Below are positions 4,981-31,618 of a stretch of 64,000 nucleotides of DNA, in pieces. Each line of letters begins with the position of its first letter. The stretch's first letter is position 1. A program made the position numbers and the translations under genes. The notes below the pieces were generated by a model. It had not been told where the DNA came from and did not search any database. It was given only the letters and a program-made list of their open reading frames with translations. Origin of the DNA: Patescibacteria group bacterium (lineage in GTDB: Bacteria > Patescibacteriota > Minisyncoccia > Phycocordibacterales > UBA918); assembly GCA_019745315.1 (NCBI GenBank), contig JAIETH010000002.1, forward strand, positions 98,306 to 162,305, written 5' to 3'.

Positions 4981-5010
4981 AAATTTGCATTGAGATGTAC
5001 CAGCGAGCAA

Positions 5011-5030
5011 AAAGCCCCTTTCGGGGCTCT
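5011..5030 (+). terminator. GC hairpin (agcccc-tttc-ggggct) 3' of the flavin reductase gene; a weak terminator candidate with no strong T-run
   Basis: perfect 6-bp GC stem with a 4-nt loop. Confidence 0.3.
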
Positions 5031-5039
5031 CGCAAATGT

Positions 5040-5059
5040 CTGGGCGGCTACAGTGAATC
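5040..5059 (-). repeat. Direct partial copy (20 bp, 1 mismatch) of the 3' end of tRNA-His
   Basis: ctgggcggctacagTgaatc here versus ctgggcggctacagGgaatc at 5218-5237. Confidence 0.8.
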
Positions 5060-5154
5060 CTCCTTTCCCAAATAATTTCTGTCGTGAACGACTTAGAAAT
5101 TATTCTCCTTAGGAGCCTAGAACTTTTGCTCAGACCAATGGCGCAAAAGTTTCC

Positions 5155-5177
5155 TTCGATTCCCTGTAGTCCTGCCC
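5155..5177 (+). repeat. Inverted partial copy of the tRNA-His T-arm/acceptor 3' half (ttcgattccctgtagtcctgccc)
   Basis: matches tRNA-His 3' half GGTTCGATTCCCTGTAGCCGCCC but sits on the opposite strand. Confidence 0.65.
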
Positions 5178-5220
5178 TTCATCACAAAACCTGACCATAT
5201 GGTCAGGTTTTGTTCTTCTG

Positions 5221-5293
5221 GGCGGCTACAGGGAATCGAACCCTGATTGAGGGCTCCACAAGCCCCAGTGTTAACCGTTACACCATAGCCGCC
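5221..5293 (-). tRNA. tRNA-His (anticodon GTG) with genomically encoded G-1
   Basis: Reverse complement reads G-1/GCGGCTA...TAGCCGC/C73. D-arm is GTGT/AACGGTTA/ACAC, anticodon stem-loop GGGGC-TTGTGGA-GCCCT, T-arm CAGGG-TTCGATT-CCCTG. CCA is not encoded. Confidence 0.85.
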
Positions 5294-5414
5294 ATCTCTC
5301 AACACCCCAATATAGAGGTATCTATTTATAACGATTTTACAGCTAAAAGTCGAGGACTCGCGTATCTATACTCAAAAACAAAAAGAGCCGACCGAAGTCG
5401 GATCTTTTTATTAG

Positions 5415-5496
5415 TGCCCAGGACTGGACTTGAACCAGCATGCAATTACGCGCTACCACCTCAAGGTAGTGGGTCTACCAATTTCCCCACCTGGGC
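5415..5496 (-). tRNA. tRNA-Leu (anticodon GAG), long variable arm
   Basis: Reverse complement reads GCCCAGG TG GGG...CCC A CTACC-TTGAGGT-GGTAG with a 13-nt variable arm, GCTGG-TTCAAGT-CCAGT and CCTGGGC A. Confidence 0.85.
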
Positions 5497-5551
5497 AACA
5501 TGCGCATCTCTACGCCGTAGCATTATGCACAAAAAACCATTTAGTATCAAG

Positions 5552-5583
5552 AAAAAAACGGAGCGTGTGCTCCGTTTTTTTCT
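5552..5583. terminator. Intrinsic terminator 3' of rplS (bidirectional hairpin)
   Basis: aaaaaaacggagc-gtgt-gctccgttttttt. Confidence 0.75.
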
Positions 5584-6180
5584 TTATACTACCTCTTCTT
5601 TCTTTTCTTCTGTCGGAGTCTCTTCTGGAGCTTCAGCAGGAACTTCTGGTTCTGGAGTATTGAGAGCTTCTTCTGCGGCCACGCGAGCTGCTTCGGCCTC
5701 CTCTGCAGCCTTGGCTTCAGCAGCGAGCGCTGCTGCCTTAGCCTCTTCTTCTGCCTTGTCTGCAGCGGCTTTTGCTACCCTCTTCTGCTCCACTTCAACA
5801 CCGCTTTCTGTTGCAAGAGATGCATTGGTCATACGGCGCATGAGACGACGAGCCTCACGAGCAACTTTCTCACGAATATGATAGAGCTTTGAACGTCGCA
5901 CTTTTGCGCGGCGGATAATCTCGATTTTGTCGATAAGTGGAGAATAGAGCGGAAAAATCTTCTCTACACCAATACCATCTACCACCTTTCGAACGGTAAA
6001 AGTACCTCCTGCTTCGTTTCCATGCTTACGAGCAAGCACAAGACCTTCGAAAAGCTGGATACGTGTCTTCCCTTTATCCTGAATCTTCTGATATACGCGA
6101 ACAGTATCGCCAGACTTGATGCCGATACTTGTGCGGTCCTCCATATTTACCGGAGAAATGATGACGCCTGTAGTGTTCAT
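5584..6180 (-). CDS. rplS: 50S ribosomal protein L19, with a roughly 70-aa Ala/Glu/Lys-rich low-complexity C-terminal extension. Start taken at MNTTGV.
   Basis: GDTVRVYQKIQDKGKTRIQLFEGLVLARKHGNEAGGTFTVRKVVDGIGVEKIFPLYSPLIDKIEIIRRAKVRRSKLY is a canonical L19 core; the tail reads AKAAADKAEEEAKAAALAAEAKAAEEAEAARVAAEEAL... Confidence 0.9.
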   Translation of the reverse strand: MNTTGVIISPVNMEDRTSIGIKSGDTVRVYQKIQDKGKTRIQLFEGLVLARKHGNEAGGTFTVRKVVDGIGVEKIFPLYSPLIDKIEIIRRAKVRRSKLYHIREKVAREARRLMRRMTNASLATESGVEVEQKRVAKAAADKAEEEAKAAALAAEAKAAEEAEAARVAAEEALNTPEPEVPAEAPEETPTEEKKEEVV

Positions 6181-6258
6181 ATAAACTATAAAATAGTACG
6201 CGGTACTGTACCACATGGTGATAAAAGCTGCAATCTTAAGGACTTTGTCGAGAAACCC

Positions 6259-6999
6259 CTAAGAAACCTTGCCTGCCCCGCCGTCAGCATCCATGACTTT
6301 CAGCGCTCGCTCAAACTCATCTGGGAGAGGAGCAATAAATGTCTGCTCTCCAGCGCTCGGAAGCATAATTTTCAGAGAATATGCATGAAGTGCAAGTCTC
6401 CCAAAACCTAAATCGCACGGAAATGTAGGCGCATAGAGCTGATCGCACACAATAGGATGGTTGATTGCCTTGAGATGTACACGAATCTGGTGCGTTCGAC
6501 CTGTCTTTGGCATCACACGCAGATACGCATGTGTGCCACTCTGACGTATCAGCTCCCAGTTAGTAACTGCCGGACGCAAGAGTCCTCGCGCGCCACGCTG
6601 CGCTGAGCGTTGACGAAAGTCTTTTGAGCTTCGACCTATTGGTCTATCGATAGTGCCCCACTCTTTTTTCATCGTGCCATATACACATGTTCTATACTCC
6701 TTCTCTACAAGTCGATCATGAAATTGTGCCTTAAGATGGAGAAAAACATCTTGTGTTTTTGCAAGAATCATCACTCCTGAAGTCTCTCGGTCAAGTCTAT
6801 GCACAATTCCCGATCGCGGTAGCGAGGCTCCATCACGCAGTCGCTCAACCTCACCTACACCATAGGAATCCGGGGAACGCTCTAAAAACCAGTCAACAAG
6901 TGTCGCTTCAGTACTCGCCTCAGTATCCTTATGTACCAACATGCCCCACGGCTTATTAACCACCAGCACGTCAGCGTCTTCGTATATAACGGTAACCAT
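6259..6999 (-). CDS. RluA-family 23S rRNA/tRNA pseudouridine synthase
   Basis: HRLDRETSGVMILAKT catalytic-Asp motif with the RluA-family core; no S4 domain. Confidence 0.85.
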   Translation of the reverse strand: MVTVIYEDADVLVVNKPWGMLVHKDTEASTEATLVDWFLERSPDSYGVGEVERLRDGASLPRSGIVHRLDRETSGVMILAKTQDVFLHLKAQFHDRLVEKEYRTCVYGTMKKEWGTIDRPIGRSSKDFRQRSAQRGARGLLRPAVTNWELIRQSGTHAYLRVMPKTGRTHQIRVHLKAINHPIVCDQLYAPTFPCDLGFGRLALHAYSLKIMLPSAGEQTFIAPLPDEFERALKVMDADGGAGKVS

Positions 7000-7007
7000 A
7001 CCTAAGA

Positions 7008-7694
7008 CTATATACCAAAATTGCGTTTTCGTGCGCTATAGCTCTCCAAAATTTCTAGAAACTCCTTTTCGGTAAATGCTGGCCATTCCGTTTTGGTAAA
7101 AAATAATTCGCTATAGACTGACTGCCATGGCAAAAAATTAGAAAGCCTCATCTCTCCTCCTGTTCGTATGATTAAATCGGGGTCAGGAATCCCTGCTGTC
7201 CATAAGTGAGACGCAAAGGTTTCTTCCGTCACCTCTTTTTCATCTTTCATTTTCTTTATCGCCTCAAGTATTTCAAGCCTTCCTCCATACGAAACCGCAA
7301 TATTCACAGTACGAACCTCCACGTGTGCAGTTCTGTGCTCCAGTGATTCCATTAACACTTGTGTGTCCAGAGAAAAACGCGTGCGGTCTCCTATAAAACG
7401 AACACGTACAGGATTTTCTAGATCACTGCATATTTTTTCTGCATCATGTATTAAAAATGTCTGAAAAAGCTTCAGCAAGTGACCAACCTCATCTTCTCCT
7501 CGTTTCCAGTTCTCAGTCGAAAACGCATACGCAACAACATGAGTAACTCCTGCCGTCTTCGCCCAACCCAAAAAATCCTTGAACCGCGCATATCCTTCAG
7601 TGTGACCTTCAAAAGAACGACGCTCATGAGCACGTGCCCAACGCCTATTGCCATCCATAATCACCCCAATGCACGCAGGAATAACACTATCCAT
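7008..7694 (-). CDS. uppS: Undecaprenyl diphosphate synthase (cis-isoprenyl transferase). Start taken at MDSVIPACIGVIMDGNRRWA.
   Basis: IMDGNRRWA, AFSTENWKR and SNFLPWQS motifs. Confidence 0.9.
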   Translation of the reverse strand: MDSVIPACIGVIMDGNRRWARAHERRSFEGHTEGYARFKDFLGWAKTAGVTHVVAYAFSTENWKRGEDEVGHLLKLFQTFLIHDAEKICSDLENPVRVRFIGDRTRFSLDTQVLMESLEHRTAHVEVRTVNIAVSYGGRLEILEAIKKMKDEKEVTEETFASHLWTAGIPDPDLIIRTGGEMRLSNFLPWQSVYSELFFTKTEWPAFTEKEFLEILESYSARKRNFGI

Positions 7695-7695
7695 A

Positions 7696-7974
7696 TTAGA
7701 CGTATACAATAGTGAAATCGTCAAAATGACCTGATGGTGCGCGCCAGTCAACCGCAACAGAGTCCACACGAGAAAGGATCGACCCCTCATGAAGCAGTTC
7801 GATATAACGCCTCAATGTATCTGGCTCCCCTTGTGCCACCACCTCTACCGATCCATCGGGTAAATTCTTCACCCACCCAACAAGATCAAAACCTCGAGCC
7901 TTGCGTTGCGCAAAATCTCGAAACATAACCATTTGCACCCTACCTTCTATACGACAGTGAATTTCCTCAAACAT
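7696..7974 (-). CDS. acyP: Acylphosphatase
   Basis: MFEEIHCRIEGRVQMVMFRDFAQRKARGFDLVGWVKNLPDGSVEVVAQGE is the acylphosphatase signature. Confidence 0.8.
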   Translation of the reverse strand: MFEEIHCRIEGRVQMVMFRDFAQRKARGFDLVGWVKNLPDGSVEVVAQGEPDTLRRYIELLHEGSILSRVDSVAVDWRAPSGHFDDFTIVYV

Positions 7975-8073
7975 ATAAATAGTTCCCTTACTGTACATTG
8001 TTTTTAGAAAGATTCATATTTAAAAAAACACCATACTCTCCTAAAAGTATGATGTTTGCAGAAATTTCACAGA

Positions 8074-8340
8074 CTAGCAGCATCGACGATCGTTGCGGCG
8101 ATGGTCGTTTCTACGGTTGGTACCACTTCGTTCGCGAGCACGCTGGTTCTGCTCTCGCCAGCTTTCTGGCCCCATGTCGCGCCACTGGGTACCAGTGCGA
8201 GGATCATAGATATATTCTCCTGAACCCTGGTAGCCACGTCCGTACCCTCGGTAATCTGTAACGGTATTAACGATCTTAAGTTCACCACAACCCGGGAGCA
8301 AGATCACGACGAGCACAAAAAGTGCGGTGCGGTATGACAT
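8074..8340 (-). CDS. Small predicted lipoprotein (signal peptide plus LPGC lipobox), hypothetical
   Basis: MSYRTALFVLVVILLPGC..., Arg/Asn-rich C-terminus. Confidence 0.45.
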   Translation of the reverse strand: MSYRTALFVLVVILLPGCGELKIVNTVTDYRGYGRGYQGSGEYIYDPRTGTQWRDMGPESWREQNQRARERSGTNRRNDHRRNDRRCC

Positions 8341-8450
8341 GGACGATTTCTCCCTTTCTGAATAAATTATACTATATTTATAGTAATTTGTCTATATATT
8401 CGCAAAAAGAAATTGAATAAATCTAATAACCGTGTACAATCGTATGCGTA

Positions 8451-8523
8451 GGGCGATTAGCTCAGTTGGTAGAGCGGCTCATTTACACTGAGATGGTCGG
8501 GGGTTCAAGTCCCTCATCGCCCA
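8451..8523 (+). tRNA. tRNA-Val (anticodon TAC)
   Basis: GGGCGAT TA GCTC AGTTGGTA GAGC...TTTACAC...GGGGG-TTCAAGT-CCCTC ATCGCCC A; close to E. coli tRNA-Val(UAC). Confidence 0.85.
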
Positions 8524-8530
8524 CAAATAC

Positions 8531-8566
8531 AAAAAGACAGGCCTCACGCCTGTCTTTTTGTATTTT
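8531..8566. terminator. Intrinsic terminator after tRNA-Val
   Basis: aaaaagacaggc-ctcac-gcctgtctttttgtatttt. Confidence 0.8.
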
Positions 8567-8706
8567 GCGATAAGGGACTTGAAGAGCGGAAGAAAACAGT
8601 CTGGGAGACTGTTTTCTGAGCTGGGGTCGAGAGCACTTAGACTTTTGCGAATACTTGGAGCAAAAGTCTAAGTGACTCGTGACCAAGCCCTCTCAATCGA
8701 GCCTCG

Positions 8707-8752
8707 CTTTCTCGGTCGGTAACTCACCTTGTTCGTGTCCTCCCGGCAGGAA
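8707..8752 (-). repeat. 46-bp perfect direct repeat, copy 1. It comprises the 3'-terminal 15 nt of tRNA-Arg(TCT) plus 31 bp of its 3' flank, and continues into a degenerate T-arm-like sequence.
   Basis: ctttctcggtcggtaactcaccttgttcgtgtcctcccggcaggaa is identical at 8856-8901. Confidence 0.85.
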
Positions 8753-8827
8753 GTTCGAAGTTTACAACTTCAGTACAGGTTGTCGCCATTTTGATTCGTA
8801 AAAACTCTCAAAATTGCTGGCAACCTT

Positions 8828-8847
8828 TTCGATTCCTGCACGAAAGC
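8828..8847 (+). repeat. Inverted T-arm-like fragment TTCGATTCCTGCACGAAAGC, related to the tRNA-Arg T-arm and to 15388-15410
   Basis: The sequence TTCGATTCCTGCACG[A/G]AAGC recurs, inverted, downstream of both tRNA-Arg genes. Confidence 0.6.
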
Positions 8848-8886
8848 ACCCCGTACTTTCTCGGTCGGTAACTCACCTTGTTCGTG

Positions 8887-8958
8887 TCCTCCCGGCAGGA
8901 ATCGAACCTACATCAAGAGCTTAGAAGTCTCCTGTTCTATCCATTGAACTACGGGAGG
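8887..8958 (-). tRNA. tRNA-Arg (anticodon TCT)
   Basis: Reverse complement reads CCTCCCG TA GTTC AATGGATA GAAC A GGAGA-CTTCTAA-GCTCT TGAT GTAGG-TTCGATT-CCTGC CGGGAGG A. There is one A/G mismatch at the base of the anticodon stem. Confidence 0.75.
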
Positions 8959-8964
8959 AATACA

Positions 8965-9372
8965 CTACTCTACCTTAATACCCCCAGTCTGCAAATCGAC
9001 TGTGGATTCTTCTTTTGCAGGCGTAGATGTTCCAGAAGTGGTTGTACTTATGGACGACTCCTCGGGAACGACCTTTATATCGAGCGCCTTAAATCTTTCT
9101 AATCGCGCACCATATTCTTGCACCATACGCACAACAAGATCCTCATCGTACGTCACATCAAGAGCCACATCCCCATTTACAACACCCTCATCAACCTGCT
9201 TGAGCGCAGAAGAAAAAAGTATATAGGCATACGACGCCCCCGCACACACGAGAGTGACCGCTAAAAGTACTCCTAAAAACCACTCACGTTCTGGGTATAT
9301 TTTTCTAAACTCACGAAAGCTCAATCGAGACTTATACGCTTCTATTACTTTACGGAAATTCCATTTCATCAT
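8965..9372 (-). CDS. Hypothetical membrane-anchored protein, last gene of the pilMNO operon and a possible PilP analogue
   Basis: N-terminal transmembrane segment (WFLGVLLAVTLVCAGASYAYILF), Thr/Ser-rich tail; only the operon position suggests a role. Confidence 0.4.
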   Translation of the reverse strand: MMKWNFRKVIEAYKSRLSFREFRKIYPEREWFLGVLLAVTLVCAGASYAYILFSSALKQVDEGVVNGDVALDVTYDEDLVVRMVQEYGARLERFKALDIKVVPEESSISTTTSGTSTPAKEESTVDLQTGGIKVE

Positions 9373-9905
9373 AGCGGTTTCTTTTTTACTACTGCAACCT
9401 CGAGAACACCTTTCCAATCTACTTCCTCACCTAATTCATTAGTCTGACTTAGAGAAACATTCATGACCTCAGACTGGTACGGTAAAGATTCAATAACTGG
9501 AAGAAACGCTTGGAGCTCGTCATACGCACCTGAAAGCTCTAAAGAAATATTGAGTGTTTCAAAATTAGTCACATCCTTTATCGGCACCACCTCAACGGAT
9601 TTAATTCGTGCTTCAAGCCCTTGATGTCGCGCGGCGCCTTCAATCAAAGCAAGTACATATGCTACATCCTCATGGGCAACCACAAATTCCGATAAGATTT
9701 TTCGATTCTCCTCTGAGTCTATATACATTTTTTCCAGCTCAGCAAACTGCTGATCACGCGCAACGCTTTCAGCATGAGCACGTGCCTGCTCTTTCACTTT
9801 TTTATCTTGTCGATTAACTTCATACAAAAGTCCCCCGTAAACACAAAGCGAAATACCTAATACGAGAAGCGATGTGAGGAGTATTTTTTTTGCAAACGGC
9901 GTCAT
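9369..9905 (-). CDS. pilO: Type IV pilus assembly protein PilO-like
   Basis: 178 aa, N-terminal transmembrane segment then a coiled-coil periplasmic domain; sits directly after pilN. Confidence 0.6.
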   Translation of the reverse strand: MTPFAKKILLTSLLVLGISLCVYGGLLYEVNRQDKKVKEQARAHAESVARDQQFAELEKMYIDSEENRKILSEFVVAHEDVAYVLALIEGAARHQGLEARIKSVEVVPIKDVTNFETLNISLELSGAYDELQAFLPVIESLPYQSEVMNVSLSQTNELGEEVDWKGVLEVAVVKKKPL

Positions 9906-9906
9906 A

Positions 9907-10452
9907 CTATGGTTTTTGCGCTACCAATAACGTCACTACAAATGCATTATCTACTTCAGGAGCAAGATCTGATACGGGAATACTAACACTACTCCAAAAT
10001 GAATCTTGTTTGAGTCTTTCCACAAATGACTGAAGGTCGCTGCGCGAACGTGCGCGACCCTCGACGCGAACCTGAGCAGCATGTACTTTTTTAGGGAGGT
10101 CCGGTGCAATCGCAATGCCCACAAGTGAAATACTCGGCGCAAGCGCCTGTTCTATGTGTGGCATCACGGCTGACGCATGAAGAGACTGTTTTGATGCAGA
10201 AAGCTGTGTAGCAAATATGTGCGCCTCAGCGAGCGTTTGTTTCATTTCATCAAACGTTTGTTGTTTTTGCGTACCACCATCCTCTGACATATCAGCTTGG
10301 AGACGGTGTACTGATAAAACGTACGTAGGTAGTAATAACGCTGCCGAAACAAAAAATGATAGTGCGCCAAGTATTATCCACACAGATAAAAACCGCGCGA
10401 CATACTCCCCTCCTATTCTTTTTTTTGCCCCTGGAGGAATGAGGTTAATCAT
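9907..10452 (-). CDS. pilN: Type IV pilus assembly protein PilN-like
   Basis: MINLIPPGAKKRIGGEYVARFLSVWIILGALSFFV is the conserved PilN N-terminus followed by a transmembrane segment. Confidence 0.7.
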   Translation of the reverse strand: MINLIPPGAKKRIGGEYVARFLSVWIILGALSFFVSAALLLPTYVLSVHRLQADMSEDGGTQKQQTFDEMKQTLAEAHIFATQLSASKQSLHASAVMPHIEQALAPSISLVGIAIAPDLPKKVHAAQVRVEGRARSRSDLQSFVERLKQDSFWSSVSIPVSDLAPEVDNAFVVTLLVAQKP

Positions 10453-11545
10453 GGTTTTTTAAAAAGTCTGTCAACGCAAGACCTATTGCCGTGGCATACC
10501 CATACGAGTGGGCGCGACCTATAGGAGGTATTTCTTCTGAAAAAAGAAATGCATTTTGCCATACTGCTGCCCGTTCAGTTGACACCTCAAGCTCTTCAGT
10601 CAAATACTCGGTGAGCCCTGCAAGATTAGCGCTTCCTCCACACAAAATAACTTTATCAATAGTACGACCCTTTGACCCCTCGCTTCGCAAGTTCCAGTAA
10701 TTGATTCGTATATTAAGCTCATCTTTAAGCGACGCAATACTCGCTACTATCGCCTTCACCACCTCGTCTCCCCCCTCACTACTTCTCAAGAGACCTTGCT
10801 CGTTTTTTATACGGGTTATTTCTTTTTCATCGATAGCACCGAGAGATCGACGCATAGCATCACTAATATGTACTCCTCCGATCTCGATTGTAGAGGTAAA
10901 CATCAACACTCCATTATGAACAATACCAATCCCCGTTCGGGTGTGTCCAAAGTCAACGATCATGTGAGTACCGGTATGCCCTGACGGAATAATGGCACGC
11001 GCAACGGCCTGTGCTTCCACTTCAAATGAAAGCGGGTAAAAACCTGCTTCACGGTATGACTCGTAATAGCCGGTTATCGTATCTCGAGCATACACGGCGA
11101 CACTTACCCGAGCCCCTCCTGTAACCGCATCTCTCCCTACAACCGTATAGTCAAACAATGCCTCACGCGGAGCAAGCGGAACGTTTTCTTCAAGATGAAA
11201 TTCAATCATGCTCCGAATAGCACTTGCTTCAACGCCCCTATCAAGGGTTGTTTCGAATAGATACGCTCGCTCCTCTGGTAGAGAAACTCGCACAAACTCT
11301 GTATGCAAACGACGACGCAGATCTTTGAGCACGGAGACGAGCGCATCTTTATTAACAACAGTGCCCCGAGCTACCGTCTCTGCAACGATGGGCATATCTC
11401 CCCATGATTCGAGAGTAAGTCTATGTCCTGCACCACGAAACTGTACGTACTTAAGCGACGCATCAGAAATATCGACTCCAACATTTGGAAGAGTCATAAA
11501 ACGAGGTGGTGGAAATACACGAGAAAACGCTTTGAGTATACTCAT
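10445..11545 (-). CDS. pilM: Type IV pilus assembly protein PilM (actin-like ATPase fold)
   Basis: 366 aa; GVDISDASLKYVQF and the overall FtsA/PilM-like architecture; pilN is adjacent. Confidence 0.8.
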   Translation of the reverse strand: MSILKAFSRVFPPPRFMTLPNVGVDISDASLKYVQFRGAGHRLTLESWGDMPIVAETVARGTVVNKDALVSVLKDLRRRLHTEFVRVSLPEERAYLFETTLDRGVEASAIRSMIEFHLEENVPLAPREALFDYTVVGRDAVTGGARVSVAVYARDTITGYYESYREAGFYPLSFEVEAQAVARAIIPSGHTGTHMIVDFGHTRTGIGIVHNGVLMFTSTIEIGGVHISDAMRRSLGAIDEKEITRIKNEQGLLRSSEGGDEVVKAIVASIASLKDELNIRINYWNLRSEGSKGRTIDKVILCGGSANLAGLTEYLTEELEVSTERAAVWQNAFLFSEEIPPIGRAHSYGYATAIGLALTDFLKNHD

Positions 11546-11603
11546 AGATACTGAGTATTATACGACGCACGCCCCGTTATTGCGTGGGGACATACTCACA
11601 TTC

Positions 11604-11933
11604 TTATTTTATTTTTGTACCAGGTGGAAGCGAACTGCTTGGCGACAAAAGAGCAAATGACCCCTCCGGAGTACTCGCAGCAAGAATCATTCCCTGACTC
11701 TCTATGCCACGTATGGTTCTATATTCAAGATTTATCAAGAAAGGAAGCGTCTGTCCTACAAGAATCTGTGGATCTTCAAAAAAAGTTCGAATACCCGATA
11801 CGATAGTACGCGGAGTTTCTTCTCCCACATCAACTGAAAGCTTCAGCAGTTTGTCAGCCCCTTCAACAACCTCTACCTCACGAATGAGACCAAGGGCTAT
11901 ATGCAGTTTTGCAAAATCGTCATATGAAATCAT
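11604..11933 (-). CDS. tRNA-binding domain protein (CsaA/EMAP-II-like OB fold)
   Basis: FAKLHIALGLIREVEVVEGADKLLKLSVDVGEETPRTIVSGI is a Myf/CsaA-type tRNA-binding domain. Confidence 0.75.
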   Translation of the reverse strand: MISYDDFAKLHIALGLIREVEVVEGADKLLKLSVDVGEETPRTIVSGIRTFFEDPQILVGQTLPFLINLEYRTIRGIESQGMILAASTPEGSFALLSPSSSLPPGTKIK

Positions 11934-12319
11934 GTTGTATGTTTTATCCGTGATAAATAGCTATTGAGAATAATAGTTGCTGCTGCAGCGTCTGTCATAT
12001 CATTTCTTCCCTGTTCACGAATGGCTTCTTGAGTAGTAAATACTTCAGACTCAAAATATACGGGGGTGTGAGAAATATCACCAAGCGCCGCGGCACATGC
12101 AGCAGCTCCTTCTGCTACAGGATTATCCTTCCCTCCGAGGGTGTGTGATTTACCAAAAACAATAGCGCCAACTTTCTCTTTTAGAACAAGCGAAGAGAGT
12201 ACCTCGACAAGATCTTTTGTGTTTGGAATAACACTATGGGGAAATGCCATAGCTCCTCCCTCATCAGAAAGGGAAATACCCACCCGCCGCGTACCATAAT
12301 CTATACCCATATACCGCAT
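11930..12319 (-). CDS. ruvX: Holliday-junction resolvase-like / pre-16S rRNA nuclease YqgF (RuvX). Start taken at the internal Met MRYMGIDYG.
   Basis: MGIDYGTRRVGISLSD...GKDNPVAEGAAACAAAL... is the YqgF signature. The 114 upstream codons of the listed ORF overlap tRNA-Ser and are non-coding. Confidence 0.8.
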   Translation of the reverse strand: MRYMGIDYGTRRVGISLSDEGGAMAFPHSVIPNTKDLVEVLSSLVLKEKVGAIVFGKSHTLGGKDNPVAEGAAACAAALGDISHTPVYFESEVFTTQEAIREQGRNDMTDAAAATIILNSYLSRIKHTT

Positions 12320-12409
12320 AAAAAGAGAATACCATAGCAGCCGCTTTTGTTGGAATCTGGAGGTATTTCTGATACTATCGTGTAACGCTTTTACCGAAGC
12401 GAGATTCCT

Positions 12410-12497
12410 GGAGGAGTCGCATAGTGGTTTAGTGCAGCGGTCTTGAAAACCGCCAGGCCGCAAGGTCTCGAGAGTTCGAATCTCTCCTCCTCCGCCA
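12410..12497 (+). tRNA. tRNA-Ser (anticodon TGA) with encoded CCA
   Basis: GGAGGAG...GCGGT-CTTGAAA-ACCGC, long variable arm CAGGCCGCAAGGTCTCG, GAGAG-TTCGAAT-CTCTC CTCCTCC G CCA. Confidence 0.9.
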
Positions 12498-12500
12498 CAG

Positions 12501-12530
12501 AAAAACAGCCCCTTATTAGGGGTTGTTTTT
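12501..12530. terminator. Intrinsic terminator after tRNA-Ser
   Basis: aaaaacagcccc-ttattag-gggttgttttt. Confidence 0.8.
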
Positions 12531-12634
12531 GTAGACAGCAGAGAGAAAGCTCTGGGAGAGCATTCGTGAAAGATTCGAAAAGGTTGTCGAGATTTTCTGA
12601 AAGAAAATATCATACAACCTGAACAGAATTTGTA

Positions 12635-12660
12635 GAATTCGAATCTCTCCTCCTCCGCCA
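12635..12660 (+). repeat. Direct copy of the last about 25 nt of tRNA-Ser, including CCA, 138 bp downstream of the gene
   Basis: gaattcgaatctctcctcctccgcca here versus gagttcgaatctctcctcctccgcca in the gene. Confidence 0.85.
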
Positions 12661-12667
12661 CAACAAT

Positions 12668-13715: not shown

Positions 13716-14324
13716 ATGAAAAAAACTTTTATTGGCATCATTTGTCTTGCATTGATTTTTGGCACTTATTTCTTTTTTATATACAAAACCCCTATCACCA
13801 ACAAAAACTCCACGGGACAAACCATAGTGGCTTTTGGTGATAGCTTGGTATATGGCACTGGATCAACACAAGGGAATGACTTTGTTTCACTTGTCTCAAA
13901 TGAACTCGGACAGCCTATTATTAACCTTGGGGTACCAGGAAATACCAGCGCCTCAGGACTTGCACGGATTGAGGAAGTTATTGCGCTTAAACCAAAGATT
14001 GTGATAGTTCTCTTTGGCGGAAATGACTTTTTACAGAAGATACCTATCGATACGACTTTCCAAAATATTGATGAGATAGTCACACGCATACACAATACGG
14101 GATCAGCGGTTATCCTCCTTGGAGTACGAGGAGGACTCCTTACCGATCCCTATGCAGATAGATTTGAAGAGATTGCAAAAAATCGCAATACTGCATATGT
14201 ACCAAATATTTTAAGTGGCCTTATTGGAAATACCTCACGCATGAGTGATGCAATTCACCCAAACGATACGGGATATAAAATAATTGCTGATAAGGTACTA
14301 ACTGTTTTTACTAAAGAATTCTAA
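13716..14324 (+). CDS. SGNH/GDSL-family hydrolase (TesA/arylesterase-like), secreted
   Basis: GDSLVYG block I, GGNDF block III, DAIHPN block V; N-terminal signal/transmembrane segment. Confidence 0.8.
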   Translation: MKKTFIGIICLALIFGTYFFFIYKTPITNKNSTGQTIVAFGDSLVYGTGSTQGNDFVSLVSNELGQPIINLGVPGNTSASGLARIEEVIALKPKIVIVLFGGNDFLQKIPIDTTFQNIDEIVTRIHNTGSAVILLGVRGGLLTDPYADRFEEIAKNRNTAYVPNILSGLIGNTSRMSDAIHPNDTGYKIIADKVLTVFTKEF

Positions 14325-14397
14325 TGCGATCACTCCAGAAAGCATATTCATAGAATAAAAAATATTTCTAGAAAATGTTCGTGCTAAAATAACAGCA

Positions 14398-14913
14398 ATG
14401 CGTTACGAAGAATATATTGGAGATCTTTCCCCTACCTCCGAAAACACAGGGAGGCTTCGTGAAATATCCTGGGAAGCACCTGAACACCATCACACTGAGA
14501 AAGGAAGTGATTGGTATTGGGCTCTCGGTATTATTACTATTGCCGGAGCAATTACTACCATTATCTTTGGCAATGTTCTTTTTGGAGTAGTTATATTACT
14601 CGCAGGTCTTATGACCGCGCTCATATCTTCTCGCCCGCCACGAACCGTCACCTACTCAATATCAGTCCGAGGAATTCGCATTGGAACAGAACTCTACCCA
14701 TACAGCAGCCTTACGTGTTTTTATATCAATGAAGAACATCATCATCATTTACAACTCCTGATTCAAACAACAAGCTTTTTTACCCCCCTTCTCGTCATTC
14801 CTATGCCAGACGAGGCACTTGAGGATGTAGAAGAGATTTTAGAGCCACGACTTCCTGAAAAGTACCTAGAAGAGTCTCTTGGTCAACGCATACTGGAATT
14901 TTTAGGATTTTAA
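14398..14913 (+). CDS. Hypothetical membrane protein with two His-rich patches
   Basis: 171 aa, two transmembrane segments, HHHTEKG and EEHHHH motifs. Confidence 0.4.
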   Translation: MRYEEYIGDLSPTSENTGRLREISWEAPEHHHTEKGSDWYWALGIITIAGAITTIIFGNVLFGVVILLAGLMTALISSRPPRTVTYSISVRGIRIGTELYPYSSLTCFYINEEHHHHLQLLIQTTSFFTPLLVIPMPDEALEDVEEILEPRLPEKYLEESLGQRILEFLGF

Positions 14914-15142
14914 GGTATGCTGGGTTTTATCGTATTTGCGTAATAGTAAATTCGAGCAGGAACTCTCCTTACAGGAGCTGTACACCTTTTGGATATTTTT
15001 GTTCGTTTTGTGAACTCTAAAAATATCTCAAAAGGTCCTGCGAAATCCTTTTACAAAGGCGGTATACCTTACAGACTTTTCCTTGAAAAGATCTGTAAGG
15101 TCTTGCGACATGCTCCCAGCATGTCTCACCCCGCACTTTCTC

Positions 15143-15214
15143 GCTCTCGTCGTTCAACGGATAGGACACAAGCTTGCGGAGCTTGTAATGTAGGTTCGAT
15201 TCCTGCCGAGAGCA
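15143..15214 (+). tRNA. tRNA-Arg (anticodon GCG), missed by the ORF track, which calls a 121-aa ORF here
   Basis: GCTCTCG TC GTTC AACGGATA GGAC A CAAGC-TTGCGGA-GCTTG TAAT GTAGG-TTCGATT-CCTGC CGAGAGC A. All stems pair, and the T-arm is identical to tRNA-Arg(TCT). Confidence 0.75.
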
Positions 15215-15222
15215 CTAAGAGA

Positions 15223-15253
15223 CACAAAACGAGACCTGCGTCTCGTTTTGTGC
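15223..15253 (+). terminator. Intrinsic terminator after tRNA-Arg(GCG)
   Basis: cacaaaacgagac-ctgc-gtctcgttttgtg. Confidence 0.8.
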
Positions 15254-15387
15254 GTTTAGTGAAGCGGAGCTATGTCGCCCCGCGACAGGCGAGCTCGGGC
15301 AGGAGCCGCTTAGCATCTTTCCGAATACTTGGAGGAAAGTGCTTAGCGAGCTGACGCCATACTTGTGCTCGAGAGGAAGCGCGGGGC

Positions 15388-15410
15388 GCTTCCGTGCAGG
15401 AATCGAAGCC
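15388..15410 (-). repeat. Inverted T-arm-like fragment (reverse complement ggcttcgattcctgcacggaagc) downstream of tRNA-Arg(GCG)
   Basis: near-identical to 8828-8847; lies within a GC palindrome gaagcgcggggcgcttc. Confidence 0.6.
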
Positions 15411-15558
15411 TGATTGAGCATTTTTTGGAAAGCTTTGCTTGAACAAAAAAATCCAATCAGGGTACTGGTTCTGTAGGAACCGAATTTCCTGGGAAAAGTA
15501 TAGAAGCAGGTTTCGCTTGAGCTGTCTTCTTCTGCACTTTCCAACAACCCACCTCAAC

Positions 15559-15588
15559 AAAAAAGACCCCGCGAGGGATCTTTTTTGT
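15559..15588. terminator. Terminator 3' of rpsT (an A-run precedes and a T-run follows the hairpin)
   Basis: aaaaagacccc-gcga-gggatctttttt. Confidence 0.7.
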
Positions 15589-15594
15589 CTTCAA

Positions 15595-15858
15595 CTACAC
15601 CATCTTCTTGATTTGGGCCGCAAGGCGAGACTTCTTTCGAGCGGCAGTATTTGGCTTGATAACGCCACGCTTTGCAGCTTTATCGATAGCCTGACTTACC
15701 TCTTTCATCATAGCTTCGGCATCAGCCTTGCTACCTGCAGTTACTTTTTGATACGTTTTTTTAAGAATGTCGCGCATTGCGTTTTGGCGACGCACGTTGT
15801 ACACACGCTTCTTGAGAGAAGACCGGAGTGCTTTTTTTGCTCCTTTGATAATTGGCAT
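15595..15858 (-). CDS. rpsT: 30S ribosomal protein S20
   Basis: MPIIKGAKKALRSSLKKRVYNVRRQNAMRDILKK...; 87 aa, basic. Confidence 0.9.
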   Translation of the reverse strand: MPIIKGAKKALRSSLKKRVYNVRRQNAMRDILKKTYQKVTAGSKADAEAMMKEVSQAIDKAAKRGVIKPNTAARKKSRLAAQIKKMV

Positions 15859-15951
15859 GTCCCGTACTGTACCTCAAAACTCTTGAAAGTGCAATACAGC
15901 GAGGAGTCTTTACGATTTTCCGTAGAGCCAGCTCTACGGTATGATGGTGGA

Positions 15952-16527
15952 ATGATACGCAGCGTTCAGGGAACCCTTATAGATATACGCGTAGGCCAGG
16001 TTGTTATTGATATCGGAGGCTTAGGATATCTCGTATTTCTCCCTTCGGGAGTGACTTCCGACCTCCAGATAGGGACACGTGCGATATTTCATACATACCT
16101 CGCCGTCCGAGAAGACTCACTCACCCTTTATGGCTTCGTAACCCGCGACGACCTTGAGATGTTTGAGCATCTTATAAATCTTCCCAAGATTGGACCGAAG
16201 TCAGCTCTTCAAATATTGTCCCAAGCGCCCATTGAGCTTATCAAAAAAGCAGTCGCCTCCGGAGATCCTGAACACTTAAGCAAGCTCTCAGGTATGGGCA
16301 AAAAAACTGCGGAGAAGATTGTGATTGGACTCAAAGATCTCTTTGGTGACGCTACACACTTCGGAACCCACGACCGCGGATCAAGCGATGTCGTTGATGC
16401 TCTACTCACATTGGGATACTCTCAAAAAGAAGCGCGTGACGTACTTGCTAAAATTGACCCAGAACTTATTGAGACAAATGCACGAGTCAAAGAGGCTCTT
16501 CGTATCCTCTCTTCCGAGAGAATGTAG
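15952..16527 (+). CDS. ruvA: Holliday junction DNA helicase subunit RuvA
   Basis: MIRSVQGTLIDIRVGQVVIDIGGLGYLVFLP...; two HhH motifs (LINLPKIGPKSA, LSKLSGMGKKTAEKI). The 170 upstream codons of the listed ORF are antisense to rpsT and are discarded. Confidence 0.9.
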   Translation: MIRSVQGTLIDIRVGQVVIDIGGLGYLVFLPSGVTSDLQIGTRAIFHTYLAVREDSLTLYGFVTRDDLEMFEHLINLPKIGPKSALQILSQAPIELIKKAVASGDPEHLSKLSGMGKKTAEKIVIGLKDLFGDATHFGTHDRGSSDVVDALLTLGYSQKEARDVLAKIDPELIETNARVKEALRILSSERM

Positions 16528-16536
16528 TATAGAAAA

Positions 16537-16570
16537 ATAAAAAACCCCGATTATCGGGGTTTTTTATTTT
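16537..16570. terminator. Bidirectional terminator between ruvA and the large surface-protein gene
   Basis: aaaaaaccccga-tta-tcggggttttttatttt. Confidence 0.85.
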
Positions 16571-16580
16571 TCTTTGTATT

Positions 16581-18767
16581 TTATTCTTCTGTAAAGATCG
16601 GCTTGATGGAGACGGTTCCAGTAACAGGTGAACCTCCCCACGTAGTACACGTCATGCTATATGTGGTTTCTCCGAGTACTGGTCCTGTAGTGCGTGAGTA
16701 GGTAGTGCCTGAAACCGCCACCGAATCAGCTGTTCCAGAAATATTTTCTCCCGCAATAACACACCCTGTATGACCATTAAGATTTCCTGATACAACCGTT
16801 GAACCATTTTTATCTACAACAGCTGGACTTACGCTCATTGTAGGTGGCGGCATTGGCAACTGCACATTAAGAGAAACGCTATCTGTCACTGGAGAACCAC
16901 CATTGTTACATGAGACCGTATATGAGATTGCACCTACTGATGGCTCACTCACGGCCGCATCACTATTTGTGGTTCCGCTTGTAGCTCCTCCCGTACTAAA
17001 GTTAAGTCCTGAACACGTACTCGCATTTGTTGAAGACCATCGGAGATCTACGTGCTGACCTTGTGCAATCTGGGCAGAGGTTGACCATGTAGAGCTTGCA
17101 CGAGGCTTAATCTCTAGTGTTGCCGTTGGAGATGGAGATGGAGGGTTTGCGCATGTAAAATCTTTTCCAGGAGTTGCAGCGCTCAATACTCCGTTATTAA
17201 TTCCATGCACCCACGTCCTATACGTTCTCCCTACTACTCCTGTAAACGGATAGCTGGTACTTGTGTAGTAATCTAGACATACATCGCCTGAGTTTTGAGT
17301 TGCGGCACAGCTCCCCACCCATGGATTACTTGTATCGTTGATACGCAACGCGTATGAGCTATTGTTGCTTCCTGCGCTCCAGCTCACATTTGCAGCTGTT
17401 CCAACACACGATGCCTGCAAATTTGTTGGCGTACTTGGACTATTACATCTAAATGTAACTATTCCAGCTGTTGGATTATATGGGGGGTCTGAGTGTACCC
17501 AAAAGTCGTAATTTTTGTCAGGCGAAATAGGCAGGTTTGCAACTGAGGTACCATATGGCCAATTATTAGTATAACAAGTACCAATACCATCTCCGACAGG
17601 AGCACCGTCAACCCATTGCCAACCAATACTGTCACAAGCCGCCTTTGTATAATCTCGAATACGTGGATGGTAGGTTGTTGCCCCAGGAACCGCATCCCAA
17701 TACGCAGTAGCGCTGGTGTTGCCGGCATTACAGGTCGCTCTCACATTTGTTGGGACAGCTGCTACGGGACAAGATATAGCTTGAGGTGAACCACCCAATA
17801 GAGGGTTGCCAGCATTACCATGAGATCCTTCATCAATAGCGTATACATAAAATGAGTGACTCGCTGTGTCTGGCAAAGCAATAGGGACTGAGTACGCATG
17901 ATATGCATTCCCTCCACAAACTCCTGCAAGGTCACCTCTGTGTAAATTGGCAACGCTCTGCCCTACATATATCCCACCACCACCCGCCGGCCCATCTCTG
18001 TACACATGCACAGAGAGCGGAGTATTGTAATTATTAGGATCACATGTCCACCCCCACACCTGCGAGCAACTTATTCCATCATGGTACCCTATTGGTGCAG
18101 CAGGTGTGGGCGGAGGTGGAGCACAGCTAAATGCTGGTCCTGCAACATAATTACTACATCCAGCTGCATTACACGCAGCAACTGACCACCTATAGTCTCC
18201 TCCATACAAACCTGACACTGTTTTTTGAGTACCGTATATATTCTCTTCTGGCCACTGATAGCTCGTCTGAGCATCATGAAGTACAAACTTTGTATATGTC
18301 GCAGAAGAAGGTACTGACCAATTTATCGTGGCCGTATTACTTGAACAACTCGCAGATCCATTTGTAGGCTCGCCTGGAGGAGGCATGCACGAACCGTCCC
18401 CTGCTCGCAAAAATCGATACTCACGACCAGCTTGCCCATCTCTGTACTGCCACCACTGCCAATCATTAGCTCCTCCCTCGGCTCCCGTACAATATGTATT
18501 CCAACACTCTTCGCTTGTGTGAGGATAATTCGACTCGCACGAAGCAGGAACAAGAGAGCCGCCACTTACCCCCAAGGGAGAGTGAGATGCGTACTCTAGC
18601 TCTGCACGATGCATGCTGTCATCTTGGGTCAAATAAACCACACCTACCAAAGATATAAATAACCCAAGTACGATACCAAATAAAGGTAAGGAGATTTTTT
18701 TATTTTTTATAAAAAGTGTACTTCTTTTAAAAACGCGCCCATACGACCTGAGTAAATGTTTAAACAT
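16581..18767 (-). CDS. Large secreted/cell-surface protein rich in Cys, Gly, Trp and Thr with repeated beta-sandwich-like segments. Hypothetical adhesin-like.
   Basis: 728 aa; N-terminal transmembrane/signal segment (ISLPLFGIVLGLFISLVGVVYL) and more than 30 Cys. Recurring segments (for example ...SCS/C[A/V]APPPPTP...) are possibly Fn3/PKD-like, but this cannot be confirmed by eye. Confidence 0.5.
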   Translation of the reverse strand: MFKHLLRSYGRVFKRSTLFIKNKKISLPLFGIVLGLFISLVGVVYLTQDDSMHRAELEYASHSPLGVSGGSLVPASCESNYPHTSEECWNTYCTGAEGGANDWQWWQYRDGQAGREYRFLRAGDGSCMPPPGEPTNGSASCSSNTATINWSVPSSATYTKFVLHDAQTSYQWPEENIYGTQKTVSGLYGGDYRWSVAACNAAGCSNYVAGPAFSCAPPPPTPAAPIGYHDGISCSQVWGWTCDPNNYNTPLSVHVYRDGPAGGGGIYVGQSVANLHRGDLAGVCGGNAYHAYSVPIALPDTASHSFYVYAIDEGSHGNAGNPLLGGSPQAISCPVAAVPTNVRATCNAGNTSATAYWDAVPGATTYHPRIRDYTKAACDSIGWQWVDGAPVGDGIGTCYTNNWPYGTSVANLPISPDKNYDFWVHSDPPYNPTAGIVTFRCNSPSTPTNLQASCVGTAANVSWSAGSNNSSYALRINDTSNPWVGSCAATQNSGDVCLDYYTSTSYPFTGVVGRTYRTWVHGINNGVLSAATPGKDFTCANPPSPSPTATLEIKPRASSTWSTSAQIAQGQHVDLRWSSTNASTCSGLNFSTGGATSGTTNSDAAVSEPSVGAISYTVSCNNGGSPVTDSVSLNVQLPMPPPTMSVSPAVVDKNGSTVVSGNLNGHTGCVIAGENISGTADSVAVSGTTYSRTTGPVLGETTYSMTCTTWGGSPVTGTVSIKPIFTEE

Positions 18768-18806
18768 ATAGCTACATTGTAACTGAAAAAAAACTCAATT
18801 TATTAG

Positions 18807-19613: not shown

Positions 19614-19677
19614 GAATTATACATCCTTGGTATTACTTTTAAAAAACCCCTCCTAACGCTTTTGCTATACTTACGCT

Positions 19678-31578: not shown

Positions 31579-31618
31579 AAAAGAAAAAACAGCACGCAGG
31601 TGCTGTTTTTTCTTTTGG
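31576..31618 (+). terminator. Long intrinsic terminator after tRNA-Lys
   Basis: ccaaaagaaaaaacagcac-gcag-gtgctgttttttcttttgg. Confidence 0.85.

Follow-up and report, generated by a model that had tools for sequence, protein, structure and literature searches.

Gene-less hairpin modules at the 3′ ends of tRNA and tmRNA genes in Patescibacteria, possibly inserted site-specifically as folded DNA

In the 64,000-nt stretch of a Patescibacteria genome analyzed here (contig JAIETH010000002.1, positions 98,306–162,305; the whole stretch is called the window), most tRNA genes are followed on their 3′ side by a small, gene-less, hairpin-rich module of DNA. The parts of a module are designated S or S1 (the tRNA segment from the T-loop to the 3′ end), T (terminator hairpin), A (antisense copy), X (insert or core) and S2 (sense copy). 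These modules belong to a widespread, apparently undescribed family of tRNA- and tmRNA-associated hairpin modules in the candidate phyla radiation (CPR); no earlier description was found in the open-access literature searched, which is not proof of novelty. We give a probability of roughly 45% to the reading that the loci of the window are local examples of widespread, gene-less hairpin insertion modules of ~100–250 nt, which insert site-specifically at the 3′ end of Patescibacteria tRNA and tmRNA genes, rebuild that end, and probably act as folded single-stranded DNA (ssDNA).

Module architecture and insert families

ARAGORN called seven tRNA genes in the window. The genes for tRNA-His(GTG) (5220–5292, −), tRNA-Val(TAC) (8451–8524, +), tRNA-Arg(TCT) (8886–8958, −), tRNA-Ser(TGA) (12410–12497, +, CCA encoded) and tRNA-Arg(GCG) (15143–15215, +) were also recognized by Rfam, and ARAGORN further placed tRNA-Leu at 5414–5496 (−) and tRNA-Lys(TTT), with an encoded CCA, at 31504–31579 (+). 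Downstream of the His, Val, Arg(TCT), Ser and Arg(GCG) genes the order of parts was gene, usually a terminator hairpin, A, a structured X, and S2; the tRNA-Lys locus showed a reduced form of this architecture. A and S2 together form a stem that closes X. All five window modules folded with this A:S2 closing helix (z −4.0 to −8.6; 0 of 200 shuffles were equally stable), as had been supposed in the first-pass annotation of the sequence, where the inverted fragment was expected to pair with the direct copy. Much of the non-coding space of the window consists of these modules.

The recurrent architecture noticed in that annotation is real and far above chance. When the last 26 nt of each tRNA were locally aligned with the 350 nt downstream at 20 tRNA loci of 5 genomes, the antisense score was at least 11 at 13 loci and the sense score at least 10 at 10 loci, compared with a mean of ~6.5 for upstream sequence and 6.3 ± 1 for shuffles. 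A repeat finder recovered the direct copies that had been reported at His (21 nt, 95%, 5039–5059/5217–5237), Arg(TCT) (46 nt, perfect, 8707–8752/8856–8901) and Ser (29 nt, 97%, 12471–12499/12634–12662), with a spacing of 149–178 bp. The inverted fragments at His (15 nt, perfect, 5155–5169 versus 5226–5240), Arg(TCT) (12 nt, 8828–8839) and Arg(GCG) (12 nt, 15396–15407) were likewise recovered. The one at Ser exists (12 nt at 92%), but lies at 12568–12579 and not at 12545–12569, where a separate small hairpin is found. At tRNA-Val, the degenerate direct copy described earlier is present, and so is the strongest inverted copy in the window (17 nt, 8567–8583), which had gone unlisted. Arg(GCG), said to have no clear direct copy, carries a degenerate one at ~15481–15492. 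The terminator placed between gene and module is usual, but Arg(TCT) has none.

The intervening sequences had been described as differing between loci, which does not hold for three of them: in blastn, the Arg(TCT) module aligned with that of Ser at 69.6% over 112 nt (E 1.7e-6) and with that of Arg(GCG) at 67% over 125 nt (E 2e-3). Their common core, designated type-1, begins with a small hairpin (hp) whose loop is often GGG and continues with (C)GTG, A_T (the 12-nt complement of the T-loop and the 3′ strand of the T-stem), the long hairpin P1, GTACYG, the short hairpin P2 (loop YGTAR), CGAA and S2. In eight copies, 95.5% of the P1/P2 cells were paired versus 55% in shuffles; 11 of 11 pairs changed on both sides, and shifting the register abolished the signal. 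A second core, B, is common to the Val, Arg(GCG) and Lys loci. The two families are represented by covariance models, R1 for B and R2 for type-1. Scanning the 64 kb with R1 yielded exactly three B-like copies, all directly 3′ of tRNAs and on the tRNA strand, and among the R2 matches in the loci examined, 15 of 22 lay just after a tRNA (Gln, Tyr, Arg, Ser, Leu, Asp, Met, Trp or Ala). The B fold obtained with RNAalifold from 115 unique units has 25 pairs, of which 15 show compensatory changes (e.g. CG46/GC32/AU23/UA8). Its conserved mismatches are G.T and T.T, with one G.T pair invariant in 115 of 115 copies, and the ratio of G.T to A.C is about 78:25 on the tRNA-sense strand, indicating that the B fold is read on that strand. 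The earlier suggestion of a family of tRNA-derived structured elements is thus right in that there are several conserved structured families, and wrong in that only the arms derive from tRNA, to which the cores bear no relation.

A strict two-part B pattern matched at least 120 metagenome stretches, and the B figures that follow rest on the matches listed. Among these, 62 of 93 assessable matches had a same-strand tRNA (58) or tmRNA (4) within 250 nt upstream; the tRNAs represented at least 21 anticodon types, and several matches without a called tRNA followed uncalled tmRNA-like 3′ ends. The anatomy was constant: gene, terminator, A, B (AGNCNGNAG ... GGGGTCGMGARCACTTAG ... CTTAGTGAYTYGTGAC), and immediately S2, where A comprised an acceptor part, often hp, and then a T-arm part ending ...ATCGAA. 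A canonical terminator stood between tRNA and insert in 44 of 62 loci. Exact S2 copies had a median length of 19 nt, and at 21 of 23 loci they began at tRNA position 56 (C56). In a second class the arms consisted of the last ~5 nt of the tRNA and the first ~5 nt of the trailer, and in rare copies behind non-tRNA terminators A was the reverse complement of whatever precedes the hairpin. The 15 nt located 5′ of B had an exact reverse complement (at least 9 nt) upstream in 40 of 67 units, versus 0 of 67 for shuffled arms. S2 tracks the tRNA and does not compensate the mismatches of A, indicating that S2 is a copy rather than a selected pairing partner.

Gain and loss of modules and the loci of the window

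The syntenic loci of six Patescibacteria (L009, L010, L014, L015, L018 and L019; PilM 53–68% identical) were compared with the window. All six show the same architecture, and A and S2 match the local tRNA in every relative locus examined, but insert types differ at orthologous tRNAs and the same type occurs at different tRNAs. tRNA-His is followed by a type-1 module in L015 versus another insert type in the window, and the B insert found at tRNA-Val in the window is located at tRNA-Leu in L015. tRNA-Arg(GCG) is occupied in all relatives by varying types; in L009 the module is of the same type as in the window, with helix sequences that differ on both strands. Units are also stacked: the tRNA-Ser of L010 is accompanied by three antisense copies and its tRNA-Val by repeats of S-T-A, the tRNA-Arg(TCT) of L018 is followed by a type-1 unit and then another unit, and at a further locus, L067, a whole S-T-A-B unit is repeated identically. 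A search of genome contigs with PilM added only a Saccharibacteria locus, 32% identical and not useful for the comparison.

Comparison of orthologous loci for empty sites, proposed with the first-pass annotation, did find such sites. tRNA-Arg(TCT) is empty in four relatives, and strain L002, which shares 99.2% identity with the window across 3.6 kb, lacks exactly 149 bp at this gene, corresponding to one 46-bp repeat plus the 103-nt type-1 core. A second pair, L050 and L107 (98.9% identical), differs by a single B unit of 127 nt, at whose boundaries the antisense arm is repeated over 18 nt. Two near-identical strain pairs thus each differ by exactly one unit.

Several further observations were made in these genomes. 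Window positions 8074–8340 and L002 3948–4349, a small ORF beside tRNA-Val, diverge sharply with many indels in an otherwise near-identical tRNA region. In L019 (19535–19741), the sense copy of the Val module (CAAGTCACTCATCGCGTAC) is closer to the tRNA-Val T-arm of other lineages than to the adjacent gene (TTCGAGCCTCTC), which would fit an older version of the 3′ end of that gene. L014 (6844–7300) contains a tRNA-Lys body (Rfam positions 7–64) with its own terminator and a Lys-matched module, placed between the Arg(GCG) module and the Arg sense copy; the junction reads 'NN', so that a scaffolding artefact is possible, and this arrangement was not used as evidence. If real, it would be a whole tRNA gene plus module nested inside another unit. 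At L016 (68–1102), a 344-aa ORF with a faint LAGLIDADG_3 match lies between RuvX and tRNA-Ser, upstream of the tRNA, and is absent in the window and the other relatives. L018 carries a prophage- or island-like stretch (13800–21095) on the 5′ side of tRNA-Arg(TCT), with rve/IS30-like transposase, HTH and ImmA-like genes and a large serine recombinase, the start of whose gene is overlapped by a LOOT RNA (20280–20396, 64.8 bits).

The His unit lies on the minus strand, its S1 being the T-loop-to-3′ segment of tRNA-His. A terminator-like perfect palindrome T (5184–5213), contained in a blastn palindrome at 5155–5240, directly follows the gene. Next comes A (5155–5177), complementary to the T-loop, T-stem and acceptor 3′ strand, of which 15 nt are perfect and the rest imperfect, and then X (5060–5154), which forms three hairpins (DNA fold z −7.5) and is neither type-1 nor B, with no match to R1 or R2 in the window scan. 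S2 (5039–5059) is identical to the 3′ end of tRNA-His at 20 of 21 positions. Right after it stands a second terminator hairpin (5003–5033, −) that differs from the one next to the tRNA, a layout shared with the His locus of L015. The sequence suggests that 5003–5033 may be the original terminator of tRNA-His.

The tRNA-Val module (+) starts with a terminator palindrome T with 18-bp arms (8525–8565) and A (8567–8583, 16 of 17 nt; perfect in L002). Its B-type insert (8584–8683; R1 match 8554–8691, 99 bits) belongs to alignment A3 and consists of a 5′ hairpin with a GGG loop, followed by a hairpin of GGGGTCGAGAGCACTTAG...CTAAGTGACTCGTGAC; the degenerate S2, with indels, occupies 8684–8703. On the minus strand, the first copy of the Arg(TCT) direct repeat (8856–8901) comprises the last 16 nt of the tRNA and a 30-nt trailer, and the second (8707–8752; S2 plus trailer) is identical at 46 of 46 positions. 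Between them lies the 103-nt type-1a core (8753–8855; R2 match 8739–8863, 103 bits), which is present in the filled allele only and contains the rest of the hp hairpin, CGTG, A_T (8828–8839), P1, GTACTG (8771–8776), P2 (8758–8770) and CGAAC. The Ser module (+) is composed of a bidirectional terminator hairpin T (12501–12530), an hp hairpin with a GGG triloop followed by GTG (12545–12565), A_T (12568–12579; 11 of 12 nt, T-loop and T-stem 3′ strand), a type-1a core with P1, GAACAG and P2 with a TGTAG loop (12580–12633; R2 match 12542–12658, 93 bits), which blastn also matched to the Arg(TCT) module, and S2 including CCA (12634–12662; 28 of 29 nt).

Downstream of tRNA-Arg(GCG) (+), a diverged B-type unit (15257–15365; R1 match 15232–15365, 48 bits, E 5e-10) is placed between the terminator hairpin T (15223–15252) and a type-1a unit (15370–15499; R2 match, 118 bits, and fold). 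The latter contains hp (15375–15393), A_T (15396–15407), P1/P2 (15408–15480) and a degenerate S2 (~15481–15492). A relic type-1 module in the opposite orientation (14940–15142, −; partial R2 match 14963–15036, 46 bits) abuts the 5′ end of the same gene. It consists of a GGG-loop hairpin, a long hairpin, P1, GTACAG, CTCC-TGTAA-GGAG and then AGTTCCTGC, and has no tRNA upstream on its own strand. At tRNA-Lys (+), a terminator palindrome (31580–31622; blastn palindrome 31573–31622) has a stem that runs into the CCA end of the gene (GGACCA ... TGGTCC), and two diverged tandem B-type units follow (31623–31784); R1 matched 31599–31699 (34 bits, E 1.4e-6), and the second unit was assigned by eye.

Elsewhere in the window, long palindromes away from tRNA genes, up to a perfect 50-mer, were found at 16508–16597, 39932–39981, 59675–59743 and 63101–63140, and terminators with long hairpins seem to be common throughout this genome. 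dnaN (42513–43607), dnaA (43856–45535) and yidC (45930–46670) are present; the chromosomal replication origin is probably near 45.5–45.9 kb, with the tRNA loci 30–40 kb from it. A perfect 373-bp direct repeat (48150–48522 and 49078–49450, spaced 928 bp) lies within adjacent ORFs (47959–48612 and 48704–49564) that have no Pfam match, near a TraG-like ATPase gene (50942–52756), and may have arisen by recent duplication within a secretion- or conjugation-like cluster. Ribosomal protein L19 (5584–5850; 210 aa) carries a long C-terminal extension rich in Ala, Glu and Lys beyond its Pfam domain, which ends at residue 123.

Proposed site-specific insertion and its alternatives

According to the proposed mechanism, a unit would be ordered as S (the 3′ part of the working gene), T, A, a conserved core X drawn from several families, and S2. 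S-T-A-X would integrate site-specifically at T-loop position 55|56, or in the second class at the extreme 3′ end, giving the gene a new 3′ end and terminator and displacing the old 3′ end downstream as S2. The resulting order, tRNA5′-S1-T-A-X-S2, is what recombination of S-T-A-X with the gene inside S would leave, by the same bookkeeping as for attL and attR. In the folded single strand, S would pair with A across T, and the hairpin stem would reproduce the double-stranded target; the antisense copy would then exist because the element acts as a folded single strand. X, rich in C-GNA-G mini-hairpins, may serve as a single-strand recognition or priming module, and arrays and unit-sized gain and loss might result from repeated integration or from unequal recombination between arms. 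The fixed 55|56 junction, tmRNA targets, arrays and unit-sized indels fit a site-specific reaction like that of the tRNA-targeting integrases, and the second, different terminator after the His S2 fits S2 plus that terminator as the original gene end. The data themselves establish the anatomy and its significance, the conserved and covarying cores, the fixed junction, the link to tRNA and tmRNA genes, the polymorphisms and the lack of coding capacity. Integration rather than local duplication, an ssDNA intermediate, a recombinase and a priming role of X are what we infer.

Several results weigh against this proposal. Pfam scans of 50 ORFs of the 64-kb window revealed no recombinase, HUH nuclease or reverse transcriptase, none was linked to modules elsewhere, and no excised or circular form was seen. 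Both strain polymorphisms can equally be read as deletions or duplications between direct repeats, without transposition. Nothing accounts for one core family acquiring arms for more than 20 tRNAs, and in many units the variable antisense segment lies between the conserved hp and the core, like a programmable guide more than an att arm. The minority of copies that follow non-tRNA sequence, with arms copied from the flank, fit fold-back copying equally well. The Arg(TCT) repeat spans 30 nt of non-tRNA trailer and shows boundary microhomology (GAGAAAG, TTCGA), as expected for template switching. Shuffle-controlled folding shows no strand asymmetry, the window modules have no replication-strand bias (2 versus 4), and the argument for DNA over RNA is one of loop statistics, not of experiment. 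A bolder version is a hitherto unrecognized class of mobile elements free of autonomous genes. Their minimal ssDNA or guide-bearing units would consist solely of a self-folding attachment hairpin, mimicking the 3′ end of a tRNA gene, and a structured recognition or priming part, and would rely on host enzymes to enter position 55|56 of essentially any tRNA or tmRNA gene. With A as a programmable specificity determinant, this version would explain one core family at more than 20 tRNAs; we regard it as doubtful.

The loops were informative about the nature of the folded strand. Of 119 inserts, 62 contained CG[N]AG (versus 9.2 expected and 2 for the antisense strand) and 19 contained GCG[N]AGC (versus 0.4 expected). 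Triloops made up 65 of 116 predicted apical loops, with DNA-type C-GNA-G triloops as the most frequent specific loop class, and no GNRA or UNCG tetraloop was found among these 116. In the 19 of 22 type-1 matches whose core could be resolved, the P2 loop was without exception a GTA triloop closed by a Y-R pair, and P1 tips included GCGAAGC, GCGTTAGC and CCGAAGG. GNA mini-hairpins are hyperstable as DNA and much weaker as RNA, and they occur naturally at ssDNA recognition sites such as the phage G4, St-1 and alpha3 origins, ssiA, and the phage N4 promoters (PMC13037366). Promoter scans inside the modules gave nothing above chance; the terminator before the insert (44 of 62 loci) and the missing internal promoter signal argue against an RNA product. 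Taken together, loops, terminators and promoter scans favor a single-strand structure at the DNA level. Two other signals were set aside. The sense strand folded more stably in 17 of 19 regions, but the difference was lost after the shuffle control, and strand asymmetry by folding energy was therefore rejected as a base-composition artefact; the ssoA CS-6 hexamer TAGCG[AT] was weakly enriched (13 of 115 versus 3.5 expected), too weakly for any claim.

These results bear directly on whether the modules are functional cis-acting RNAs, that is, read-through 3′ trailer domains of tRNA transcripts in which A pairs with the tRNA 3′ half or with S2, as a switch or as an acceptor/T-arm minihelix mimic for processing, stabilization or sensing. 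In favor of this, the cores are conserved and covary, the tRNA-sense strand is biased toward G.U, pairing of S1 with A precludes that of A with S2, hp emerges precisely where acceptor and T-stem meet, the point from which the remaining arms of a genuine tRNA extend, and some module stands at tRNA-Arg(GCG) in every genome examined. We nevertheless consider this explanation unlikely, given the canonical terminator in front of most inserts, the lack of internal promoter signal, and loops of the C-GNA-G class in place of GNRA or UNCG (PMC13037366). Moreover, a 99%-identical strain does without the Arg(TCT) module, orthologous tRNAs have different modules or none, indels have eroded S2 at older loci, Val among them, and no Rfam family matches. 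The lineage-specific 3′ processing or termination module suggested in the first-pass annotation is disfavored by the same strain difference, the variation among orthologous tRNAs, the intervening terminators and the DNA mini-hairpin loops.

Less probable again is that the modules are a mutational by-product, in which long terminator palindromes provoke fold-back or template-switch errors that copy the flank reversed (A) and then again (S2), while microhomology switches paste in cores, followed by unequal recombination; the cores would then be selfish hairpins resembling repetitive extragenic palindromes (REP), without dedicated targeting. Such copying would suit the alternation of sense and antisense copies between successive hairpins, the frequent occurrence of S1-T-A as one seamless palindrome including the last tRNA bases, and the arms in non-tRNA contexts, where A is the reverse complement of the sequence preceding the terminator. 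It would also agree with the microhomology at both boundaries of the Arg(TCT) indel, the palindromic nature of the T-loop itself (TTCGAA/TCGA), helices that are almost purely Watson–Crick on both strands, and the other long palindromes of the window. It leaves unexplained, however, why S2 starts at position 56 in 21 of 23 loci, why tRNA and tmRNA genes are strongly preferred over many other terminators, and why the terminator next to the tRNA differs from that after S2; in many units a conserved hp hairpin separates A from the terminator, and the core families are conserved across distant genomes. An RNA-mediated spread resembling that of short interspersed nuclear elements, with read-through tRNA-core transcripts entering tRNA genes by target-primed reverse transcription, would make the direct repeats target duplications of variable length and the conserved 3′ hairpin a reverse-transcriptase recognition site. 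Repeat lengths do vary from 5 to 46 nt or more, besides whole S-T-A units, the 3′-terminal hairpin adjoins the junction, the T-loop supplies microhomology there, the structure is strand-specific, and partial and multimeric units occur. This route nonetheless appears improbable: no reverse transcriptase was found among the window ORFs scanned or beside any copy seen, terminators upstream of the cores limit the template RNA, the loops are DNA-type, and the antisense copy goes unexplained.

Of its three options, the first-pass annotation came nearest with the att-like duplication, except that the intervening sequence is itself the element. The duplication logic is borne out by the fixed S2 start, unit gain and loss, arrays, and tmRNA genes. 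Scars of large excised elements are another matter, because the 100–180 bp between the repeats are a conserved, covarying element with no room for an integrase. That ordinary prophages or islands entered tRNA genes and later lost their interiors, leaving attL and attR side by side, is accordingly the account to which we give least credence, although T-loop-to-3′ direct repeats and the use of tRNA and tmRNA genes are its classic signature (PMC9897764). Insert conservation contradicts it: the sequence between the repeats is a conserved, covarying family at no fewer than 120 metagenome stretches rather than random remnants, and a single 149-bp unit accounts exactly for the difference between a filled and an empty allele. 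No integrase fragments appeared in the Pfam scans of the window, where 50 ORFs, including all those flanking the five loci, encoded no integrase, recombinase, reverse transcriptase or HUH protein, and the 100–180-bp inserts contain no ORF. Searching viral contigs (IMG/VR) with three patterns returned a single match, a chance one inside a coding region, and thus gave no phage link.

Other identities were considered and set aside. Rfam 15 returned only tRNAs at the gathering score, and no family for the modules; at E ≤ 5 it added only generic hairpin noise, including miRNA-like matches that reflect long hairpins, and no match resembling an omega-RNA or bridge RNA. Neither sequence nor Rfam supported hammerhead or other small ribozymes, box C/D or H/ACA guides, retron msr/msd, Y RNA, or a split or intron-containing tRNA. 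A as a copy of the tRNA 5′ strands, i.e. of a degenerate second tRNA, was rejected at the T50.G64 wobble of tRNA-Arg, where A reads GCAGG and not GTAGG and is therefore the complement of the 3′ strand.

If mobile, the modules would be among the smallest site-specific integrating elements known, without genes of their own, and a major shaper of intergenic DNA in reduced CPR genomes. Locus-matched antisense segments between conserved parts hint at programmable targeting of tRNA genes, which is relevant to recombinases and guided transposition; if functional RNAs, the modules would form a new and very widespread tRNA-linked RNA class. In practical terms, partial tRNA copies and long palindromes beside tRNA genes fragment the assemblies of CPR genomes and mislead the annotation of their tRNAs. 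The two covariance models and the simple DNA pattern make the question testable in public metagenomes and metatranscriptomes.

Comparison with known systems

Integration is said to occur at distinct sublocations in tRNA genes, the T-loop and the extreme 3′ end, and tRNA/tmRNA repeats reportedly are its classic signature, as described by Williams in 2002. The module junctions likewise lie in the T-loop or at the extreme 3′ end, and the modules similarly show tandem accretion at one tRNA. Partial tRNA copies mark integration, and as with islands and prophages in tRNA and tmRNA genes, the 3′ part is targeted, the element brings a copy that restores the gene, and a partial copy remains as a repeat of 5 to 46 nt or more (PMC9897764). 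Of the features by which integrase islands are recognized, the tRNA direct repeat is present, and a recombinase gene or remnant and kilobase-sized cargo are absent. Unlike islands of 9–120 kb, the modules measure 100–250 bp, contain no integrase or other gene, carry an inverted copy of the target, and place the same core at more than 20 different tRNAs. Size, absence of genes and the inverted copy are what is new relative to known tRNA-targeting integration.

A hairpin of single-stranded DNA that recombines with a duplex target is known from CTX-phi with XerCD and from integron attC sites, where host-encoded recombinases can suffice (PMC3442271, PMC4792948, PMC5027507). The modules resemble CTX-phi-type integrative mobile elements exploiting Xer (IMEX) and attC in that an inverted repeat folds, its stem mimics the duplex target, mismatches or unpaired bases are conserved in a structure specific to one strand, the sequence varies while the fold is kept, and units form arrays (PMC3442271, PMC4792948, PMC5027507). 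As in the CTX-phi type, S and A are inverted repeats of 12–26 nt around the terminator hairpin, and the stem is the 3′ part of the tRNA gene. They differ in that the target is the tRNA T-loop or 3′ end rather than dif or attI, there are no cargo genes, and the ssDNA intermediate is inferred. The attC boxes (RYYYAAC ... GTTRRRY) are not found: the modules end in AGNCNGNAG... and ...GTGAC|CGA, the T-loop GTTCGAA misfits GTTRRRY, and the G.T and T.T mismatches are not in the attC layout.

Compared with REP, bacterial interspersed mosaic elements (BIME), REPIN and miniature inverted-repeat transposable elements (MITE), the modules are similarly short, gene-less, hairpin-forming, extragenic and often placed behind terminators, with family mosaics, arrays and strain variation. 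Short imperfect extragenic palindromes in mosaics and arrays, the hallmark of REP and BIME, are present. REP and MITE, however, have the same ends in all copies and fixed short target duplications, whereas module arms are copied from the neighboring tRNA and differ by locus, the duplications are long and variable (~5 nt in the 3′-end class, 19, 21, 29 and 46 nt, and whole S-T-A units), and no RAYT or transposase partner was identified, with no HUH protein among the 50 window ORFs scanned. A conserved foot like the 5′ GTAG/GGAG tetranucleotide of REP was likewise not seen in the modules. The properties of an intrinsic terminator, a GC-rich hairpin plus a T-run, belong to the T part only (at Ser and in 44 of 62 metagenome loci among the matches listed), not to A, X or S2.

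With the origins of phages G4, St-1 and alpha3, RSF1010 ssiA and the N4 promoters, the modules share C-GNA-G or GCGNNAGC loops and a strand-specific structure (PMC13037366). Exact heptamers or octamers (GCGAAGC, GCGTTAGC, CCGAAGG) are common to the modules and such single-strand initiation hairpins, which show no homology in sequence outside the loops. Finally, like the omega-RNAs of TnpB and IscB and the bridge RNA of IS110, the modules have a variable target-complementary segment of 10–24 nt between conserved structured parts, and as with a TnpB omega-RNA and its 3′ guide, 19 nt of flanking target sequence directly follow the module core. They are unlike these systems in that no TnpB, IscB or IS110 gene lies near the modules, that their arms pair with each other, and that they show a target duplication, which is not a feature of omega- or bridge-RNA systems.

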